A DNA stretch of 64,000 nt, from NCBI RefSeq assembly GCF_030013595.1, contig NZ_CP122768.1; one strand, 5' to 3'. The DNA is from Escherichia coli. GTDB taxonomy: Bacteria; Pseudomonadota; Gammaproteobacteria; Enterobacterales; Enterobacteriaceae. The position numbers were made by a program, and so were the translations under genes. Below the pieces are notes generated by a model. That model did not search any database, had not been told where the DNA came from, and worked only from the letters and a program-made list of their open reading frames with translations. The first letter of the stretch is position 1; the number at the start of each line of letters is the position of its first letter. This document shows, in pieces, positions 16,680-52,692 of the stretch.

Positions 16680-18947
16680 ATGAAAGTATTAATTGTTGAA
16701 AGCGAGTTTCTCCATCAAGACACCTGGGTCGGTAACGCCGTTGAGCGTCTGGCAGATGCTTTAAGCCAGCAAAATGTTACCGTGATTAAATCCACCTCCT
16801 TTGATGATGGTTTTGCCATTCTCTCTTCAAACGAAGCCATTGACTGCCTGATGTTCAGCTATCAAATGGAACATCCGGACGAACATCAAAACGTCAGACA
16901 ATTGATCGGTAAGCTTCATGAGCGCCAACAAAACGTGCCGGTCTTCCTGTTGGGCGATCGGGAAAAAGCCCTCGCCGCAATGGATCGCGACCTGCTGGAG
17001 CTTGTCGATGAATTCGCCTGGATTCTGGAAGATACCGCCGACTTTATCGCCGGACGCGCCGTTGCCGCGATGACCCGCTACCGCCAGCAACTGTTGCCGC
17101 CACTGTTCAGCGCGCTGATGAAATATAGCGACATCCATGAATATTCCTGGGCAGCACCAGGCCACCAGGGTGGCGTTGGTTTTACCAAAACACCCGCCGG
17201 ACGTTTCTACCATGACTACTATGGTGAAAACCTGTTCCGCACCGACATGGGCATCGAACGAACTTCCCTCGGTTCTTTGCTTGACCATACTGGCGCATTT
17301 GGCGAAAGCGAAAAATATGCTGCACGCGTATTTGGTGCCGATCGCTCCTGGTCGGTAGTCGTCGGTACTTCCGGCTCTAACCGCACCATCATGCAGGCTT
17401 GCATGACCGATAACGATGTCGTGGTCGTTGACCGTAACTGCCATAAATCCATCGAACAAGGCTTGATGCTGACAGGCGCGAAACCGGTCTACATGGTGCC
17501 AAGCCGCAACCGCTACGGCATTATCGGGCCAATCTATCCGCAGGAAATGCAACCTGAAACCTTGCAGAAGAAAATCAGTGAAAGCCCGCTGAATAAAGAC
17601 AAAGCCGGGCAAAAACCGTCTTACTGCGTGGTGACCAACTGCACCTATGACGGCGTGTGTTATAACGCTAAAGAAGCGCAGGATCTGCTGGAAAAAACCT
17701 CCGATCGTCTGCACTTTGACGAAGCCTGGTACGGCTATGCACGTTTCAACCCGATCTATGCCGATCACTATGCCATGCGCGGCGAACCTGGCGATCACAA
17801 CGGTCCTACCGTTTTCGCCACCCACTCCACCCACAAACTGCTGAATGCGCTGTCACAGGCCTCTTATATTCATGTACGTGAAGGTCGTGGGGCGATTAAC
17901 TTCTCCCGCTTCAACCAGGCCTACATGATGCATGCCACCACCTCCCCGCTGTATGCCATCTGCGCATCCAACGACGTGGCGGTGTCGATGATGGACGGCA
18001 ACAGCGGCCTGTCACTGACCCAGGAAGTGATCGACGAAGCGGTTGATTTCCGTCAGGCGATGGCGCGGCTGTATAAAGAGTTCACCGCTGACGGTAGCTG
18101 GTTCTTCAAACCGTGGAACAAAGAAGTCGTCACCGACCCACAAACCGGCAAAACCTATGACTTTGCTGACGCACCAACCAAACTGCTGACCACCGTTCAG
18201 GACTGCTGGGTCATGCATCCGGGCGAAAGCTGGCACGGCTTCAAAGATATTCCGGATAACTGGAGTATGCTCGACCCGATTAAAGTCAGCATCCTTGCTC
18301 CGGGAATGGGTGAAGATGGTGAACTGGAAGAAACCGGTGTTCCGGCGGCGCTGGTCACTGCCTGGCTTGGTCGCCACGGCATTGTGCCTACCCGCACCAC
18401 TGACTTCCAAATTATGTTCCTGTTCTCTATGGGCGTAACCCGTGGGAAATGGGGGACTCTGGTTAACACCCTTTGCTCCTTCAAACGCCACTATGACGCC
18501 AACACACCGCTGGCGCAGGTGATGCCGGAACTTGTTGAACAATATCCTGACACTTACGCGAACATGGGGATTCACGATCTGGGTGACACCATGTTTGCCT
18601 GGCTGAAAGAAAACAACCCTGGCGCACGGTTGAACGAAGCCTATTCCGGCCTGCCGGTGGCGGAAATCACCCCGCGTGAAGCGTACAACGCGATTGTCGA
18701 CAACAATGTCGAACTGGTATCCATTGAAAATCTGCCAGGACGCATCGCGGCAAACTCAGTTATCCCGTATCCGCCAGGAATCCCGATGCTGCTGTCTGGT
18801 GAAAACTTCGGCGATAAAAACAGTCCGCAAGTAAGTTATTTACGCTCGCTGCAATCCTGGGACCATCATTTCCCTGGATTTGAACACGAAACAGAAGGGA
18901 CAGAAATTATTGACGGTATTTACCACGTTATGTGTGTGAAAGCGTAA
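16680..18947 (+). CDS. adiA: Biodegradative (acid-inducible) arginine decarboxylase
   Basis: ORF track 16677..18947 has tandem ATG codons; the second ATG (MKVLIVESEF) gives 755 aa; PLP-dependent fold (STHKLL lysine motif). Confidence 0.92.
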   Translation: MKVLIVESEFLHQDTWVGNAVERLADALSQQNVTVIKSTSFDDGFAILSSNEAIDCLMFSYQMEHPDEHQNVRQLIGKLHERQQNVPVFLLGDREKALAAMDRDLLELVDEFAWILEDTADFIAGRAVAAMTRYRQQLLPPLFSALMKYSDIHEYSWAAPGHQGGVGFTKTPAGRFYHDYYGENLFRTDMGIERTSLGSLLDHTGAFGESEKYAARVFGADRSWSVVVGTSGSNRTIMQACMTDNDVVVVDRNCHKSIEQGLMLTGAKPVYMVPSRNRYGIIGPIYPQEMQPETLQKKISESPLNKDKAGQKPSYCVVTNCTYDGVCYNAKEAQDLLEKTSDRLHFDEAWYGYARFNPIYADHYAMRGEPGDHNGPTVFATHSTHKLLNALSQASYIHVREGRGAINFSRFNQAYMMHATTSPLYAICASNDVAVSMMDGNSGLSLTQEVIDEAVDFRQAMARLYKEFTADGSWFFKPWNKEVVTDPQTGKTYDFADAPTKLLTTVQDCWVMHPGESWHGFKDIPDNWSMLDPIKVSILAPGMGEDGELEETGVPAALVTAWLGRHGIVPTRTTDFQIMFLFSMGVTRGKWGTLVNTLCSFKRHYDANTPLAQVMPELVEQYPDTYANMGIHDLGDTMFAWLKENNPGARLNEAYSGLPVAEITPREAYNAIVDNNVELVSIENLPGRIAANSVIPYPPGIPMLLSGENFGDKNSPQVSYLRSLQSWDHHFPGFEHETEGTEIIDGIYHVMCVKA

Positions 18948-19282: not shown

Positions 19283-20044
19283 ATGAGGATTTGCAGCGAC
19301 CAACCTTGTATTGTTTTATTGACTGAAAAAGATGTCTGGATAAGGGTGAATGGGAAAGAACCTATTAGCCTTAAAGCTAACCATATGGCGTTATTAAATT
19401 GTGAAAATAATATTATCGACGTCTCCTCTCTTAATAACACTTTGGTTGCTCATATTAGTCACGACATCATCAAAGATTACCTCCGGTTTCTGAATAAAGA
19501 TCTCTCGCAAATACCAGTATGGCAACGTAGCGCTACGCCCATCCTCACTCTGCCATGCCTGACGCCAGACGTCTTTCGCGTTGCCGCGCAACACAGCATG
19601 ATGCCCGCTGAAACTGAGTCAGAAAAGGAACGAACACGTGCATTATTATTCACTGTGCTATCCCGTTTTCTCGACAGTAAAAAATTCCTTTCACTAATGA
19701 TGTATATGTTACGTAATTGTGTAAGTGACAGCGTTTATCAAATTATTGAAAGCGATATCCACAAAGACTGGAATCTTAGTATGGTAGCCAGTTGTTTATG
19801 TCTTAGCCCGAGTCTGTTAAAGAAAAAGCTGAAAAGCGAAAACACCAGTTATAGCCAAATAATCACCACCTGCCGCATGCGTTATGCCGTAAATGAATTA
19901 ATGATGGACGGTAAAAATATCTCTCAGGTATCACAGTCCTGCGGCTACAACAGTACGTCGTACTTTATTTCTGTCTTTAAAGACTTCTACGGTATGACGC
20001 CTCTGCATTATGTTAGTCAGCACAGAGAACGCACTGTCGCCTGA
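19283..20044 (+). CDS. adiY: AraC-family regulator of the arginine-dependent acid resistance genes
   Basis: ORF track 253 aa, ATG with AGGAG 8 bp upstream; low-GC gene; AraC-type HTH at the C-terminus; between adiA and adiC. Confidence 0.92.
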   Translation: MRICSDQPCIVLLTEKDVWIRVNGKEPISLKANHMALLNCENNIIDVSSLNNTLVAHISHDIIKDYLRFLNKDLSQIPVWQRSATPILTLPCLTPDVFRVAAQHSMMPAETESEKERTRALLFTVLSRFLDSKKFLSLMMYMLRNCVSDSVYQIIESDIHKDWNLSMVASCLCLSPSLLKKKLKSENTSYSQIITTCRMRYAVNELMMDGKNISQVSQSCGYNSTSYFISVFKDFYGMTPLHYVSQHRERTVA

Positions 20045-20180: not shown

Positions 20181-21518
20181 ATGTCTTCGGATGCTGATGC
20201 TCACAAAGTGGGCTTAATCCCCGTCACCCTGATGGTGTCGGGGAATATTATGGGGTCAGGTGTTTTTCTGTTACCTGCAAACCTGGCCTCCACTGGCGGG
20301 ATTGCCATTTATGGATGGTTGGTGACGATTATCGGTGCGCTGGGGCTCTCGATGGTATACGCCAAAATGTCGTTCCTCGACCCAAGTCCTGGTGGTTCTT
20401 ACGCTTACGCCCGCCGCTGCTTTGGCCCGTTTCTCGGTTATCAAACCAACGTCCTCTATTGGCTGGCCTGCTGGATCGGCAATATCGCCATGGTGGTCAT
20501 TGGCGTAGGTTATTTAAGTTACTTCTTCCCGATTCTGAAAGATCCATTGGTATTAACCATCACCTGCGTCGTGGTGCTGTGGATCTTCGTCCTGCTGAAT
20601 ATTGTCGGTCCGAAAATGATCACCCGCGTGCAGGCCGTTGCCACCGTGCTGGCGCTGATCCCCATCGTCGGGATTGCCGTATTTGGCTGGTTCTGGTTCC
20701 GTGGTGAAACCTATATGGCGGCATGGAACGTCAGCGGCCTGGGCACCTTCGGCGCGATTCAAAGTACCCTTAACGTTACGCTGTGGTCGTTCATCGGTGT
20801 GGAAAGTGCCTCCGTTGCCGCAGGTGTGGTGAAAAACCCGAAACGCAACGTCCCTATCGCCACCATTGGTGGGGTATTGATTGCCGCCGTTTGCTATGTG
20901 CTCTCCACCACCGCGATTATGGGGATGATCCCTAATGCCGCACTGCGCGTTTCTGCCTCGCCATTCGGTGATGCCGCACGGATGGCGTTGGGTGACACCG
21001 CCGGGGCCATTGTTTCCTTCTGCGCAGCTGCGGGCTGCTTAGGTTCACTGGGCGGCTGGACATTGCTGGCGGGTCAAACGGCGAAAGCCGCTGCCGATGA
21101 CGGACTGTTCCCACCAATTTTTGCCCGTGTTAATAAAGCGGGTACACCAGTGGCGGGGCTGATTATCGTCGGTATTTTGATGACCATCTTCCAGCTCAGC
21201 AGCATTTCACCAAACGCGACCAAAGAGTTCGGTCTGGTTTCTTCCGTCTCGGTCATCTTTACACTGGTGCCATATCTTTACACCTGTGCGGCGTTACTGC
21301 TGCTCGGCCACGGTCACTTTGGTAAAGCACGCCCGGCATATCTGGCAGTTACTACCATTGCCTTCCTCTACTGCATCTGGGCCGTGGTGGGGTCCGGGGC
21401 GAAAGAGGTTATGTGGTCATTTGTCACCCTGATGGTCATCACCGCCATGTATGCGCTGAATTACAACCGGCTGCATAAAAACCCGTATCCCTTAGATGCA
21501 CCAATAAGCAAAGATTAA
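20181..21518 (+). CDS. adiC: Arginine:agmatine antiporter (APC family)
   Basis: ORF track 445 aa, ATG start; 12-TM APC transporter; synteny with adiA and adiY. Confidence 0.93.
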
Positions 21519-21544
21519 TTCCCCTTAATCCAGCAAACATAAAA

Positions 21545-21578
21545 GCCAACCTTAAGAACTTAAGGTTGGCTTAATTTT
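21545..21578 (+). terminator. Rho-independent terminator after adiC
   Basis: gccaaccttaag / cttaaggttggc 12-bp inverted repeat followed by ttaattttg. Confidence 0.7.
21559..21575 (+). promoter_or_regulatory. Putative PmrA (BasR) box upstream of eptA (CTTAAG-N5-CTTAAT)
   Basis: Direct repeat of hexamers with 5-bp spacer (cttaag gttgg cttaat) 47 bp upstream of the eptA ATG; fits the recalled PmrA-box consensus YTTAAK-N5-YTTAAK. Confidence 0.6.
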
Positions 21579-21621
21579 GCTTTGCGAGCATATGCGCACT
21601 TTGTTCGATGGAAACACCGTG

Positions 21622-23265
21622 ATGTTGAAGCGCCTACTAAAAAGACCCTCTTTGAATTTACTCGCCTGGCTATTGTTGGCCGCTTTTTATATCTCTATCT
21701 GCCTGAATATTGCCTTTTTTAAACAGGTGTTACAGGCGCTGCCGCTGGACTCGCTGCATAACGTACTGGTTTTCTTGTCGATGCCGGTCGTCGCTTTCAG
21801 CGTGATTAATATTGTCCTGACACTAAGCTCTTTCTTATGGCTTAATCGACCGCTGGCCTGCCTGTTTATTCTGGTCGGCGCGGCTGCACAATATTTCATA
21901 ATGACTTACGGCATCGTCATCGACCGCTCGATGATTGCCAATATTATTGATACCACTCCGGCAGAAAGTTATGCGTTGATGACGCCACAAATGTTATTAA
22001 CGCTGGGATTCAGCGGCGTGCTTGCTGCGCTGATTGCCTGCTGGATTAAAATCAAACCTGCCGCCTCGCGCCTGCGCAGTGTTCTTTTCCGTGGAGCCAA
22101 TATTCTGGTTTCTGTACTGCTGATTTTGCTGGTCGCCGCACTGTTTTATAAAGACTACGCCTCATTGTTCCGCAACAACAAAGAGCTGGTGAAGTCCTTA
22201 AGCCCCTCTAATAGCATTGTTGCCAGCTGGTCATGGTACTCCCATCAGCGACTGGCAAATCTGCCGCTGGTGCGAATTGGAGAAGACGCGCACCGCAACC
22301 CATTAATGCAGAACGAGACACGTAAAAATTTGACCATCCTGATTGTCGGCGAAACCTCGCGGGCGGAGAACTTCTCCCTCAACGGCTACCCGCGTGAAAC
22401 TAACCCGCGGTTGGCGAAAGATAACGTGGTCTATTTCCCTAATACCGCATCTTGCGGCACGGCAACGGCAGTTTCAGTACCGTGCATGTTCTCGGATATG
22501 CCGCGTGAGCACTACAAAGAAGAGCTGGCACAGCACCAGGAAGGCGTGCTGGATATCATTCAGCGAGCGGGCATCAACGTGCTGTGGAATGACAACGATG
22601 GCGGCTGTAAAGGTGCCTGCGACCGCGTGCCTCACCAGAACGTCACCGCGCTGAATCTGCCTGGTCAGTGCATCAACGGCGAATGCTATGACGAAGTGCT
22701 GTTTCACGGGCTGGAAGAGTACATCAATAACCTGCAGGGTGATGGCGTGATTGTCTTACACACCATCGGCAGCCACGGTCCGACCTATTACAACCGCTAT
22801 CCGCCGCAGTTCAGGAAATTTACCCCTACCTGCGACACTAACGAGATCCAGACCTGTACCAAAGAGCAACTGGTGAACACTTACGACAACACGTTGGTTT
22901 ACGTCGACTATATTGTTGATAAAGCGATTAATCTGCTGAAAGAACATCAGGATAAATTCACCACCAGCCTGGTTTATCTTTCTGACCACGGTGAGTCGTT
23001 AGGTGAAAATGGCATCTATCTGCACGGTCTGCCTTATGCCATCGCCCCGGATAGCCAAAAACAGGTACCAATGCTGCTGTGGCTGTCGGAGGATTATCAA
23101 AAACGGTATCAGGTTGACCAGAACTGCCTGCAAAAACAGGCGCAAACGCAACACTATTCACAAGATAATTTATTCTCCACGCTATTGGGATTAACTGGCG
23201 TTGAGACGAAGTATTACCAGGCTGCGGATGATATTCTGCAAACTTGCAGGAGAGTGAGTGAATGA
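21622..23265 (+). CDS. eptA: Lipid A phosphoethanolamine transferase
   Basis: ORF track 21577..23265 begins at an upstream TTG; the ATG at 21622 ([14 protein letters not shown]) gives 547 aa; N-terminal TM helices plus sulfatase-like periplasmic domain; overlaps basR start. Confidence 0.9.
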
Positions 23266-23930
23266 AAATTCTGATTGTTGAAGACGATACGCTGTTATTG
23301 CAGGGATTGATTCTGGCGGCGCAAACCGAAGGCTACGCGTGCGATGGCGTGACAACCGCGCGGATGGCGGAACAAAGCCTTGAGGCCGGTCATTACAGCC
23401 TGGTGGTACTGGATTTAGGGTTACCCGACGAAGATGGACTGCATTTTCTCGCCCGTATCCGGCAGAAAAAATACACCCTGCCGGTACTGATCCTCACCGC
23501 TCGCGATACGCTGACCGACAAAATCGCCGGGCTGGATGTCGGTGCCGATGACTATCTGGTGAAGCCTTTTGCGCTGGAAGAGTTACACGCCCGTATCCGC
23601 GCCCTGCTACGACGCCATAATAATCAGGGCGAAAGTGAGCTGATTGTTGGCAATCTGACGCTGAATATGGGTCGCCGTCAGGTATGGATGGGCGGTGAAG
23701 AGTTGATTCTGACGCCCAAAGAATATGCTCTGCTGTCACGGTTAATGCTCAAAGCAGGCAGTCCGGTGCATCGGGAAATTCTCTACAACGACATCTATAA
23801 CTGGGACAATGAACCCTCGACTAACACCCTGGAAGTGCATATCCACAATCTGCGCGACAAAGTGGGCAAAGCCCGTATCCGCACCGTGCGCGGATTTGGC
23901 TATATGCTGGTCGCGAATGAGGAAAACTAA
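23262..23930 (+). CDS. basR: Two-component response regulator BasR (PmrA), OmpR family
   Basis: ORF track 222 aa; receiver domain ([14 protein letters not shown]) plus winged-helix C-terminus; ATGA overlap with eptA. Confidence 0.93.
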
Positions 23931-23939
23931 TTGAATCTG

Positions 23940-25031
23940 ATGCGTTTTCTGCGCCGACCAATATCGCTGCGCCAACGGCTGATATTGACCATTGGGGCCA
24001 TTTTGTTGGTGTTTGAGCTGATCAGCGTCTTCTGGCTATGGCATGAAAGTACCGAGCAGATTCAGCTGTTTGAGCAGGCGCTACGCGACAATCGCAACAA
24101 CGATCGCCACATCATGCGTGAGATCCGCGAGGCGGTCGCCAGCCTGATCGTCCCCGGCGTCTTTATGGTCAGCCTGACGCTATTTATCTGCTATCAGGCG
24201 GTACGCCGCATCACCCGCCCGCTGGCGGAGCTGCAAAAAGAGCTGGAAGCGCGCACCGCCGACAACTTAACGCCCATTGCCATTCACAGCGCCACCCTCG
24301 AAATCGAAGCGGTGGTTTCGGCGTTAAACGATCTGGTCAGTCGCCTGACCAACACGCTGGATAACGAAAGGTTGTTTACCGCTGACGTCGCGCACGAACT
24401 GCGAACGCCACTGGCGGGGGGGCGTTTGCATCTGGAACTGCTGGCGAAAACGCATCACATTGATGTAGCACCGTTAGTGGCACGGCTTGATCAGATGATG
24501 GAGAGCGTCTCCCAGCTGCTGCAACTGGCGCGTGCCGGACAGTCATTTTCTTCCGGTAATTATCAACATGTAAAACTGCTGGAAGATGTCATTCTCCCCT
24601 CGTATGACGAACTCAGTACCATGCTCGACCAGCGACAGCAAACCCTGCTATTGCCAGAGAGCGCCGCCGACATCACCGTTCAGGGTGATGCAACCCTGCT
24701 GCGGATGTTATTGCGAAACCTGGTAGAAAACGCCCATCGTTACAGCCCGCAAGGCAGCAACATTATGATTAAGCTGCAAGAAGATGGCGGAGCGGTCATG
24801 GCTGTTGAAGATGAAGGACCGGGTATTGATGAGAGTAAATGCGGGGAGTTGAGTAAAGCATTTGTACGTATGGACAGCCGTTATGGCGGGATTGGTCTGG
24901 GGTTAAGTATTGTCAGCCGCATTACACAGTTGCATCACGGGCAGTTTTTCCTGCAAAACCAGCAAGAGACTTCCGGCACGCGGGCCTGGGTACGGCTGAA
25001 GAAAGATCAGTACGTGGCAAACCAGATATAA
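23940..25031 (+). CDS. basS: Sensor histidine kinase BasS (PmrB)
   Basis: ORF track 23931..25031 begins at TTG; the ATG at 23940 (MRFLRRPISL) gives 363 aa; two TM segments, H-box (ADVAHELRTP), HATPase motifs. Confidence 0.9.
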   Translation: MRFLRRPISLRQRLILTIGAILLVFELISVFWLWHESTEQIQLFEQALRDNRNNDRHIMREIREAVASLIVPGVFMVSLTLFICYQAVRRITRPLAELQKELEARTADNLTPIAIHSATLEIEAVVSALNDLVSRLTNTLDNERLFTADVAHELRTPLAGGRLHLELLAKTHHIDVAPLVARLDQMMESVSQLLQLARAGQSFSSGNYQHVKLLEDVILPSYDELSTMLDQRQQTLLLPESAADITVQGDATLLRMLLRNLVENAHRYSPQGSNIMIKLQEDGGAVMAVEDEGPGIDESKCGELSKAFVRMDSRYGGIGLGLSIVSRITQLHHGQFFLQNQQETSGTRAWVRLKKDQYVANQI

Positions 25032-25096
25032 AGAAAGCTGCTGACCACCAGCACGCTGAACACGGTAGTTAAACTTTCATAAACACGGTTTTTCAT
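25007..25096 (-). CDS. pmrR: Small membrane protein PmrR (29 aa), PmrA-regulated
   Basis: Not in ORF track. Hand translation of the minus strand from ATG at 25096 to TGA at 25007 gives MKNRVYESLTTVFSVLVVSSFLYIWFATY; its 3' end overlaps the basS 3' end by 25 bp in antisense. Confidence 0.8.
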   Translation of the reverse strand: MKNRVYESLTTVFSVLVVSSFLYIWFATY

Positions 25097-25140
25097 TGCA
25101 CTCTCCTCCGTTAACCTGGAGGAGAGTATGCGCGTCAGAG

Positions 25141-25157
25141 ATTAAGTGAACCTTAAG
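25141..25157 (-). promoter_or_regulatory. Putative PmrA (BasR) box upstream of pmrR
   Basis: Minus strand reads cttaag gttca cttaat, same half-site architecture as the eptA box, about 45-60 bp upstream of the pmrR ATG. Confidence 0.6.
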
Positions 25158-25166
25158 ACTTCAATT

Positions 25167-30814: not shown

Positions 30815-30832
30815 TTGTATTGTGATCGGTAA

Positions 30833-30908
30833 GCCGGATAAGGCGCTCGCGCCGCATCCGGCAACGATGCCGACAGCCTGATGCGACGCTGACCGCGTCT
30901 TATCAGGC
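30833..30908. repeat. REP elements (two units) between yjdM and yjdN
   Basis: gccggataaggcgctcgcgccgcatccggc and gcctgatgcgacgctgaccgcgtcttatcaggc read directly. Confidence 0.7.
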
Positions 30909-30973
30909 TTCCCTCTCATCTGTATAAATTTCGAACTACACTTAACTGGCTTCTCTTAACTGAGGTCACCATC

Positions 30974-50544: not shown

Positions 50545-52692
50545 ATGAAAAAAGTCGTCACGGTTTGCCCCTATTGCGCATCAGGTTGCAAAATCAACCT
50601 GGTCGTCGATAACGGCAAAATCGTCCGGGCGGAGGCAGCGCAGGGGAAAACCAACCAGGGTACCCTGTGTCTGAAGGGTTATTATGGCTGGGACTTCATT
50701 AACGATACCCAGATCCTGACCCCGCGCCTGAAAACCCCCATGATCCGTCGCCAGCGTGGCGGCAAACTCGAACCTGTTTCCTGGGATGAGGCACTGAATT
50801 ACGTTGCCGAGCGCCTGAGCGCCATCAAAGAGAAGTACGGTCCGGATGCCATCCAGACGACCGGCTCCTCGCGTGGTACGGGTAACGAAACCAACTATGT
50901 AATGCAAAAATTTGCGCGCGCCGTTATTGGTACCAATAACGTTGACTGCTGCGCTCGTGTCTGACACGGCCCATCGGTTGCAGGTCTGCACCAATCGGTC
51001 GGTAATGGCGCAATGAGCAATGCTATTAACGAAATTGATAATACCGATTTAGTGTTCGTTTTCGGGTACAACCCGGCGGATTCCCACCCAATCGTGGCGA
51101 ATCACGTAATTAACGCTAAACGTAACGGGGCGAAAATTATCGTCTGCGATCCGCGCAAAATTGAAACCGCGCGCATTGCGGACATGCACATTGCACTGAA
51201 AAACGGCTCAAACATCGCGCTGTTGAATGCGATGGGTCATGTCATTATTGAAGAAAACCTGTACGACAAAGCGTTCGTCGCTTCCCGTACAGAAGGCTTT
51301 GAAGAGTATCGTAAAATCGTTGAAGGCTACACGCCGGAGTCGGTTGAAGATATCACCGGCGTCAGCGCCAGTGAGATTCGTCAGGCGGCACGGATGTATG
51401 CCCAGGCGAAAAGCGCCGCCATCCTGTGGGGCATGGGTGTAACCCAGTTCTACCAGGGTGTGGAAACCGTGCGTTCTCTGACCAGCCTCGCGATGCTGAC
51501 TGGTAACCTCGGTAAGCCGCATGCGGGTGTAAACCCGGTTCGTGGTCAGAACAACGTGCAGGGTGCCTGCGATATGGGCGCGCTGCCGGATACGTATCCG
51601 GGCTATCAGTACGTGAAAGATCCGGCTAACCGCGAGAAATTCGCCAAAGCCTGGGGCGTGGAAAGCCTGCCAGCGCATACCGGCTATCGCATCAGCGAGC
51701 TGCCGCACCGCGCAGCGCATGGCGAAGTGCGTGCCGCGTACATTATGGGCGAAGATCCGCTGCAAACTGACGCGGAGCTGTCGGCAGTACGTAAAGCCTT
51801 CGAAGATCTGGAACTGGTCATCGTTCAGGACATCTTTATGACCAAAACCGCGTCGGCGGCGGATGTTATTTTACCGTCAACGTCGTGGGGCGAGCATGAA
51901 GGCGTGTTTACTGCGGCTGACCGTGGCTTCCAGCGTTTCTTCAAAGCGGTTGAACCGAAGTGGGATCTGAAAACGGACTGGCAAATCATCAGTGAAATCG
52001 CCACCCGTATGGGTTATCCGATGCACTACAACAACACCCAGGAGATCTGGGATGAGTTGCGTCATCTGTGCCCGGATTTCTACGGTGCGACTTACGAGAA
52101 AATGGGCGAACTGGGCTTCATTCAGTGGCCTTGCCGCGATACTTCAGATGCCGATCAGGGGACTTCTTATCTGTTTAAAGAGAAGTTTGATACCCCGAAC
52201 GGTCTGGCGCAGTTCTTCACCTGCGACTGGGTAGCGCCAATCGACAAACTCACCGACGAGTATCCGATGGTACTGTCAACGGTGCGTGAAGTTGGTCACT
52301 ACTCTTGCCGTTCGATGACCGGTAACTGTGCGGCACTGGCAGCGCTGGCTGATGAACCTGGCTACGCACAAATCAATACCGAAGACGCCAAACGTCTGGG
52401 TATTGAAGATGAGGCATTGGTTTGGGTGCACTCGCGTAAAGGCAAAATTATCACCCGTGCGCAGGTCAGCGATCGTCCGAACAAAGGGGCGATTTATATG
52501 ACCTACCAGTGGTGGATTGGTGCCTGTAACGAGCTGGTTACCGAAAACTTAAGCCCGATTACGAAAACGCCGGAATACAAATACTGCGCCGTGCGCGTCG
52601 AGCCGATCGCCGATCAGCGCGCCGCCGAGCAGTACGTGATTGACGAGTACAACAAGTTGAAAACTCGCCTGCGCGAAGCGGCACTGGCGTAA
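50545..52692 (+). CDS. fdhF: Formate dehydrogenase H, selenocysteine-containing molybdoenzyme (in-frame UGA at 50962..50964 read as Sec)
   Basis: ORF track splits this into 50545..50964 and 51013..52692 in the same frame; the only interruption is TGA at 50962..50964 (...NNVDCCARV-U-HGPSVAGLHQSVGNG...); N-terminal Fe-S Cys motif CPYCASGC; total 715 codons. Confidence 0.93.
50962..51005 (+). other. Selenocysteine UGA codon plus downstream SECIS stem-loop
   Basis: tga cacggcccatcggttgcaggtctgcaccaatcggtcggtaatggc: a hairpin-forming segment immediately 3' of the in-frame UGA, matching the recalled fdhF SECIS. Confidence 0.85.

Follow-up and report, generated by a model that had tools for sequence, protein, structure and literature searches.

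The PmrA box family was reportedly first described by Wosten and Groisman in 1999. A pmra-box consists of two hexamers located 5 nt apart that overlap the -35 element of pbgP, ugd and pmrCAB (PMC10570014), and a conserved CTTAA-N5-CTTAA motif was reported for yjdB/pmrC (PMC1525208). In Escherichia coli K-12, eptA-lacZ is induced by constitutive basS/basR alleles, and acidic pH is listed as an inducer of BasSR (PMC8151780). Here, we analyzed a 64-kb window of E. coli DNA (the window is the whole stretch under analysis, all coordinates refer to it, and gene positions were mapped onto it from the K-12 RefSeq annotation) in which the antiporter gene adiC is followed in the same orientation by eptA, the first gene of the eptA-basRS operon. 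The 103-bp intergenic spacer that separates them (21519-21621) contains a PmrA/BasR box of which a part also forms one arm of a hairpin located just past adiC.

A first-pass annotation of this DNA had proposed that the same bases act as the terminator of adiC and as a BasR-binding site for eptA-basRS, an arrangement that could couple acid-resistance read-through to lipid A modification. Our analysis favors, as the probable explanation, two ordinary elements with common bases in the spacer: a BasR-dependent eptA promoter and a Rho-independent terminator of adiC. An activator site that overlaps a terminator arm is a compact solution, hardly surprising, and needs no new mechanism. We found no description of it in the literature searched.

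An exact PmrA/BasR box precedes eptA

Two YTTAAK hexamers arranged as a direct repeat with a 5-nt spacing are found upstream of eptA (Table 1). The pattern CTTAAK-N5-CTTAAK matched exactly at only two places in the 64 kb, for 0.02 matches expected, and both matches precede PmrA-regulated genes; the other one, CTTAAGGTTCACTTAAT, is located in the pmrR promoter on the minus strand. When up to 2 mismatches were allowed, 14 sites were found for 9.95 expected, i.e., nothing above chance. The eptA start codon begins at 21622, not 21623, leaving 46 nt between the box and the ATG, of which the A is the 47th base after the box, in keeping with the 47 bp of the first-pass annotation.

Sixty loci encoding EptA relatives, taken from species-representative genomes, were aligned by anchoring on the box. 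Every Enterobacteriaceae locus exhibited the same gap-free layout, consisting of xTTAAx, 2 nt, CTTAAG, GTTnn, CTTAAx, 10 nt and nAnnAT, with box columns reaching 1.87 to 1.98 bits. The succession of box, 10 nt and nAnnAT was found in about 50 Enterobacteriaceae genomes, with nAnnCT in the Pantoea loci. The distance from the box to the ATG is about 63 nt in essentially all Enterobacteriaceae loci, and about 77-78 nt in Klebsiella and Raoultella. The box-to-(-10) spacing is equal in the E. coli arnB promoter, where the box CTTAAGGTTAAGTTAAT is followed by 10 nt and TAAAAT. From this conserved spacing, we infer that GAGCAT is the -10 element of eptA and that transcription would start about 7 nt further downstream.

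Because its layout agrees with the published pmra-box, with the yjdB/pmrC motif and with BasSR-dependent expression of eptA-lacZ, the direct repeat is, as judged from its sequence, the already known eptA/pmrC promoter element and a genuine PmrA/BasR box. The definition of the box and its BasR dependence are both taken from the literature (PMC10570014, PMC8151780) and, together with the exact consensus and the fixed, conserved geometry in Enterobacteriaceae orthologues, bear out the BasR site that had been proposed for eptA-basRS. No published sequence of the E. coli eptA box was found in the literature searched.

The box is part of a terminator-like hairpin downstream of adiC

The CTTAAG-N5-CTTAAT repeat had been described as sharing the right arm of a hairpin that follows adiC, and we found exactly this: the exact box overlaps a perfect inverted repeat whose right arm contains its first half-site and spacer. 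The two arms, 21543-21556 (AAGCCAACCTTAAG) and 21559-21572 (CTTAAGGTTGGCTT), are 14 nt long and 100% complementary, with a 2-nt centre, AA. The 12-nt arms given in the first-pass annotation, gccaaccttaag and cttaaggttggc (21545-21556 and 21559-21570), are real and extend by 2 nt each. The stem begins 24 nt past the adiC stop codon, which ends at 21518.

The predicted RNA fold of the hairpin has a free energy of -18.8 kcal/mol (z-score of -4.6), and none of 200 shuffled sequences was as stable. A consensus terminator scan classed it as terminator-like (13 pairs, of which 5 are G-C, a loop of 4 nt, and AATTTTGCTT as the tail); it is the sole terminator-like site from the adiC stop codon to eptA, and is also terminator-like on the opposite strand. 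Minimum free energy and centroid folds of the whole spacer yielded the hairpin and flanking pairs only, with no competing antiterminator structure, and an attenuator or regulated terminator was rejected on these grounds. A search of the spacer against Rfam at a permissive threshold gave no match at gathering score (best E-value, 0.08), all matches being at the level of sub-threshold chance, and a described RNA family was likewise rejected. A weak 21-bit match of the STnc630 model to the eptA promoter (21551-21720) is explained by the PmrA box contained in this pmrR-type family model.

The spacer is nearly uniform in E. coli. The 601 bp around the hairpin and box are 100% identical to strain CFSAN018748, and matches were found in 5412 of 5426 complete E. 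coli genomes. For the spacer alone (21519-21621), 5323 of 5411 genomes show an identity of at least 99%, whereas only 494 of 5412 do so for the 601-bp stretch that includes the coding flanks (21300-21900), making the spacer far more uniform. Three matches to the 103-bp spacer sit on records annotated as plasmids. Furthermore, in E. coli strain 1506 (NZ_CP059288.1), IS1 is found directly after the box and the T-tract; the match stops at the position equivalent to 21580 of the window, the -10 element and the 5' end of eptA are missing from this locus, and eptA is annotated as a partial pseudogene.

The palindrome is composed of two evolutionary layers

adiC lies upstream of eptA and in the same orientation in 26 fetched loci of Escherichia, most Citrobacter and Salmonella. 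Other co-directional neighbors occupy this position in other lineages: fumB in Citrobacter koseri, a conserved hypothetical gene (NCBIfam PRK09867) in Intestinirhabdus, a ybhK-like (YvcK-family) gene in Klebsiella, and, in Kluyvera and Raoultella, an open reading frame (ORF) that equals it in size. Loci were placed in two alignments, each 46 columns wide and free of gaps. A1 holds sequences of the Escherichia/Citrobacter/Salmonella clade with two close relatives, among them those of C. koseri and Intestinirhabdus, whose neighbor is not adiC, and A2 holds Klebsiella, Kluyvera and Raoultella.

The left arm of the hairpin ends with a third hexamer, CTTAAG, hereafter named hex3, which is preceded by the outer left arm GCCAAC. 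The TTAA core of hex3 is invariant in both alignments (2.0 bits). The outer left arm carries 1.44 bits in A1 and 0.55 bits in A2, and the six columns located upstream of it carry 0.23 and 0.29 bits, respectively. Likewise, 87% of the stem cells pair in A1 and 65% in A2, and the T fraction in the 9 nt that follow the box is 0.65 in A1 and 0.18 in A2. In these alignments, the palindrome thus is made of two layers, with hex3 conserved in both clades and the outer arm, like the T-rich tail, restricted to A1. We think it probable that the outer arm and the tail turn a small palindrome into a terminator, and that they are under selection where adiC has no other hairpin, as in Escherichia and Citrobacter amalonaticus. 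Across six Escherichia lineages, all 26 columns of 21545-21570 are constant, whereas 12 of the 26 columns of 21519-21544 vary; for the 12-nt left arm alone, which is not constrained by the box, this corresponds to a one-sided hypergeometric probability of about 0.004.

The centre of the palindrome (21557-21558, columns 19-20 of A1) reads AA in 17 and TT in 12 of the 29 sequences, with no intermediates, and the resulting loops, GAAC and GTTC, are reverse complements of each other. This pattern suggests repeated inversion of the hairpin loop through palindrome-mediated template switching. One could regard the whole overlap as a product of chance or mutation: local duplication, inversion or template switching around CTTAAG would have left a quasi-palindrome in which the box alone is functional. 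The self-complementarity of CTTAAG and the restriction of the centre to AA or TT in the adiC-linked clade speak for such processes. Nevertheless, judging by the shuffles, chance falls far short of producing a perfect 14-nt repeat in a spacer of 103 bp, the left arm does not vary between Escherichia species, in contrast to the neighboring spacer, and the spacer hardly changes among the 5411 E. coli genomes, all of which makes this explanation very improbable.

Stability of the box hairpin is inversely related to that of a separate hairpin

Among 27 adiC-linked genomes, the predicted stability of the hairpin containing the box ranges from -20 kcal/mol to about 0. The strongest ones were found in Escherichia and C. 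amalonaticus, where the RNA between the adiC stop codon and the box is 35-42 nt long and shows no structure. Conversely, the weakest ones were found in Salmonella and in the Citrobacter braakii group, where adiC has a separate hairpin downstream, rich in GC and folding at -22 to -29 kcal/mol. The stabilities of the two hairpins are inversely related (Spearman correlation of -0.76 across the 27 genomes, and -0.83 across 9 clade means, p = 0.005), as expected if the outer arm is kept only where the box hairpin is the sole 3' structure of adiC. Furthermore, changes in the left arm within A1 are mostly C-to-T substitutions that preserve G-U pairs (10 U-G cells), and one pair exhibits a compensatory change, from C-G to A-U, in three Citrobacter genomes.

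Together with the position of the stem, its stability and the conservation of the left arm, these observations suggest that the hairpin likely terminates adiC transcription in E. coli, probably incompletely. The adiC terminator of the first-pass annotation is thus plausible, but several points weigh against it. The tail UUAAUUUUGCUUU passes a simple scan, but its U-tract is interrupted (UUAAUUUU), and an approximate d'Aubenton-Carafa-type score is +8.8 for a 12-bp stem and falls to -12.5 when the two outer A-U pairs are counted; termination efficiency may thus be modest. Compensatory change is not significant: a single pair is altered on both sides, and neither it nor the paired fraction nor the U-G cells stand out from shuffles, which reach the observed values in 79 to 262 of 500 trials. 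Such tests are uninformative here, as the box, and thus protein recognition, keeps the right arm fixed. Conservation of the left arm could instead reflect a function at the DNA level. The T-rich spacer is also kept in Salmonella and C. braakii despite the decayed hairpin, and its persistence without a hairpin may reflect a constraint of the promoter rather than a terminator tail. In other genera, the separate upstream hairpins lack T-tracts and are no clear replacement terminators, and contrasts between clades are confounded by phylogeny. Finally, the Term-seq tables of PMC7815308 contain no entry for adiC or eptA, no mapped adiC 3' end was found, and neither a mapped eptA start site nor a BasR footprint was found in the literature searched. 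That literature also yielded no discussion of an adiC terminator.

hex3 is an apparently eptA-specific element

The TTAA core of hex3 is invariant in 46 of 46 distinct Enterobacteriaceae eptA promoters, whichever gene lies upstream and whether or not a usable hairpin is present, and these promoters come from genera whose neutral intergenic sites are saturated. In most lineages, hex3 fits YTTAAK on one strand or the other. These genomes conserve nothing at the matching position of their pmrR promoters, and the E. coli arnB promoter reads ATTAGT at this place; the pmrR control led us to reject hex3 as a feature shared by PmrA promoters in general. Since hex3 is invariant at eptA regardless of the neighbor while nothing is conserved at pmrR and arnB differs, it appears from these comparisons to be an eptA-specific element, neither a by-product of adiC termination nor a general requirement of PmrA.

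Two other arrangements involving the palindrome were rejected. A mirrored PmrA box on the minus strand would read CTTAAGGTTGGCTTTTA in E. coli, with 3 mismatches, and is absent at up to 2 mismatches; a full mirrored box occurs only in C. amalonaticus and Citrobacter gillenii, as a by-product of a longer stem. An alternative sigma-70 promoter with hex3 as its -35 element has no properly spaced -10 element by inspection.

hex3 lies at about -47 to -42 from the predicted eptA start, a region where proximal UP-element contacts occur. Candidate roles would be an additional contact for PmrA or QseB, or a contact for the alpha subunit of RNA polymerase that offsets a weak -10 element. The scaffold used for the PmrA activation complex had an AT-rich segment upstream (PMC10570014).

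A need of the eptA promoter for hex3, either as a third, possibly inverted PmrA/QseB half-site or as a dock for the C-terminal domain of the alpha subunit, could by itself account for the palindrome. As CTTAAG is self-complementary, a hairpin would then form automatically and have no selected function as RNA, and adiC transcription would end through Rho or run on. The invariance of the hex3 core in the 46 promoters, including those of Klebsiella, Kluyvera and Raoultella, which have a ybhK-like neighbor, no outer stem and an A-rich tail, fits this explanation, as do the location of hex3 relative to the predicted start, the AT-rich segment of the scaffold and the non-significant compensation in the stem. 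However, it leaves the outer arm GCCAAC unexplained, which in Escherichia is invariant next to a segment with 12 of 26 variable positions, and which decays where another hairpin follows adiC. PmrA promoters generally do not need hex3, as seen at pmrR. Moreover, C-to-T changes are tolerated in the left arm, where they break the DNA symmetry and keep the RNA pairing. We therefore regard a promoter function alone as unlikely.

A model for the shared bases

According to the explanation that we favor, in which promoter and terminator have bases in common, a dimer of phosphorylated BasR would bind CTTAAG and CTTAAT in place of a -35 element and recruit sigma-70 RNA polymerase to the weak -10 element GAGCAT, with transcription of eptA starting near 21598. 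The adiC mRNA would carry a copy of the first half-site and spacer (CUUAAGGUUGGC), which would pair with the upstream stretch GCCAACCUUAAG to form a hairpin of 12-14 bp followed by UUAAUUUUGCUUU, and the RNA would be released at about 21578-21583. As this release would occur upstream of the eptA start, the hairpin would be present only in adiC transcripts. hex3 would belong to the eptA promoter in all Enterobacteriaceae examined, independently of adiC.

The coupling of acid-resistance read-through to lipid A modification suggested by the first-pass annotation did not find support. Such a coupling could take two forms: leaky read-through under acid and anaerobic induction would supply BasR-independent eptA-basRS mRNA, or phosphorylated BasR would block the polymerase transcribing adiC while a terminating polymerase occludes the eptA promoter, so that each response is tuned against the other. 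Some interference is physically unavoidable, given that the polymerase crosses the first half-site and the spacer before the hairpin forms (and enters half-site 2 if the two outer pairs form). RNA release would fall within the eptA promoter, at about -20 to -15, the terminator seems to be of moderate strength only, and both systems respond to low pH. Yet we saw no experimental or comparative sign of selection for coupling, and the literature searched contained no transcriptional link between adiC and eptA and no cotranscription. The promoter and hex3 are equally conserved beside ybhK or fumB, and the inner palindrome is also found where adiC is not the neighbor. Furthermore, the hairpin has decayed in Salmonella and in several Citrobacter lineages in which adiC-eptA synteny persists, which argues against a conserved coupling device. 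Regulated coupling thus seems quite improbable. We give as little credence to a related scheme in which hex3 would be an additional contact for BasR/PmrA or QseB, possibly inverted, that tunes the autoregulated promoter, and whose bases were recruited in Escherichia into the adiC terminator, so that BasR occupancy and adiC termination or read-through affect each other. If it were true, this contact and the recruitment of its bases would link arginine-dependent acid resistance in cis with lipid A modification.

Features of the locus and of the pmrR-proP region

Table 1. Coordinates of the elements of the adiC-eptA spacer and of neighboring genes in the window.
Feature	Position	Strand	Basis or remark
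adiA	ends at 18947		RefSeq K-12 annotation mapped to the window
adiY	19283-20044		RefSeq K-12 annotation mapped to the window
adiC, arginine/agmatine antiporter coding sequence	20181-21518	+	ORF list and RefSeq annotation of identical or near-identical E. coli genomes
Inverted repeat, putative stem-loop of the adiC intrinsic terminator	21543-21572	+	Repeat search, terminator scan and RNA fold
Outer left arm, GCCAAC	21545-21550	+	Pairs with GTTGGC (box spacer and first base of half-site 2); lineage-specific stem layer
hex3 (third hexamer), CTTAAG, inner left arm	21551-21556	+	2 nt upstream of the box; apparently specific to the eptA promoter
PmrA/BasR box, CTTAAG-GTTGG-CTTAAT (CTTAAGGTTGGCTTAAT)	21559-21575	+	Exact consensus; replaces the -35 element; about -39 to -23 from the predicted start
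T-rich tract, TTAATTTTGCTTT	21571-21583	+	Putative adiC release site; same bases as the end of half-site 2 and the box-to-(-10) spacer
Predicted eptA -10 element, GAGCAT	21586-21591	+	10 nt after the box, conserved spacing
Predicted eptA transcription start	21597-21599	+	About 7 nt after the -10 element, from whose position it is derived; 5' untranslated region of about 24 nt
eptA	21622-23265	+	First gene of the operon; ORF list and RefSeq annotation
basR	23262-23930	+	eptA-basRS operon; ORF list and RefSeq annotation
basS/pmrB	23931-25031	+	eptA-basRS operon; ORF list and RefSeq annotation
pmrR	25096-25007	-	RefSeq annotation mapped to the window
pmrR promoter	box 25141-25157, -10 element CATACT 25130-25125	-	Second exact PmrA box of the window
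proP	from 25208	-	RefSeq annotation mapped to the window

At the other end of the operon, pmrR overlaps the 3' end of basS in antisense. Its box and 10-nt spacing are conserved across the fetched genera, with CAnACT or GAnACT as the -10 element. The Rfam family STnc630, described as an 'enterobacterial sRNA' (small RNA), matched 25000-25165 on the minus strand with 181 bits, covering the pmrR coding region and the PmrA box; a small protein gene and a portion of its promoter seem to be included in the model. After proP, a GC-rich inverted repeat, GGCCTGAT...ATCAGGCC (25195-25167, minus strand), ends 9 nt upstream of the pmrR box. The order of elements, with the hairpin of the upstream gene followed by a PmrA box, parallels that of adiC-eptA, but the elements are unfused.

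In four Kluyvera loci, an upstream co-directional ORF of 160-310 codons stops at about -60 from the eptA ATG, inside the first half-site of the box; in three of the four, it has the size and position of the ybhK-like gene of Klebsiella. As no terminator-like hairpin intervenes, read-through into eptA seems likely in these loci.

Two more Rfam matches in the window scored above the gathering score, SECIS_2 (bacterial selenocysteine insertion element) and naRNA4 (nucleoid-associated RNA derived from repetitive extragenic palindromic (REP) sequences), listed in this order for 50957-51011 and 30832-30909, both on the plus strand. Both are ordinary features of E. coli unrelated to the adiC-eptA hairpin. 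Among the genomes searched, a contig labelled 'Chryseobacterium sp.' carries an eptA locus of Enterobacteriaceae type, and its assembly appears mislabelled or contaminated. Similarly, assemblies of Comamonadaceae and Methylobacterium include contigs of 230-250 bp that match E. coli eptA at 99-100% identity, an apparent case of contamination or mislabelling.

Discussion

If the activator site of the eptA promoter doubles as an arm of the neighbor's terminator, any promoter fragment or deletion cut at the box also removes the adiC terminator, and mutations of the box would affect two transcription units. Two points stand out from the analysis: the invariant third hexamer of this promoter and the evolutionary trade-off between the box hairpin and alternative hairpins.

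A close counterpart of the E. coli locus is the pmrCAB operon of Salmonella and Klebsiella, an orthologous and autoregulated operon in which YTTAAK hexamers located 5 nt apart also replace the -35 element (PMC10570014, PMC1525208). In the Salmonella loci, the box reads CTTAAGGTTCACTTAAT or CTTAAGGTTTGCTTAAT and is as far from the ATG as in E. coli, and the boxes themselves do not differ in any essential way. However, the hairpin is reduced there to 5 + 3 pairs, with a stability of about 0 kcal/mol, whereas in E. coli the box doubles as the 3' arm of a hairpin that is long and perfect. The pmrR promoter resembles that of eptA by its near-identical box (CTTAAGGTTCACTTAAT), by a -10 element located after exactly 10 nt, and by a co-directional upstream gene, proP, with a hairpin just upstream of the box. 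It differs in that the proP hairpin is separate from the box, at a distance of 9 nt, and in that no genus has a conserved hex3-like motif.

The arrangement is also comparable to Rho-independent terminators of compact intergenic regions that abut or overlap the next promoter, as a stem-loop and a T-rich tract come soon after the stop codon and directly upstream of the -10 element of the next gene. Unlike in these, protein recognition here dictates the sequence of the 3' arm, an activator site, and leaves the 5' arm alone free to adapt. In bidirectional terminators, the hairpin is terminator-like on both strands. The adiC-eptA hairpin shares this property but has no convergent gene, and its resemblance to a terminator on the opposite strand is without obvious use. 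Finally, transcription factor roadblocks place a bound regulator in the path of an elongating polymerase, and promoter occlusion involves a promoter located inside the terminal footprint of the upstream unit. At adiC-eptA, blocking by BasR and occlusion by adiC transcription are a geometric possibility only.

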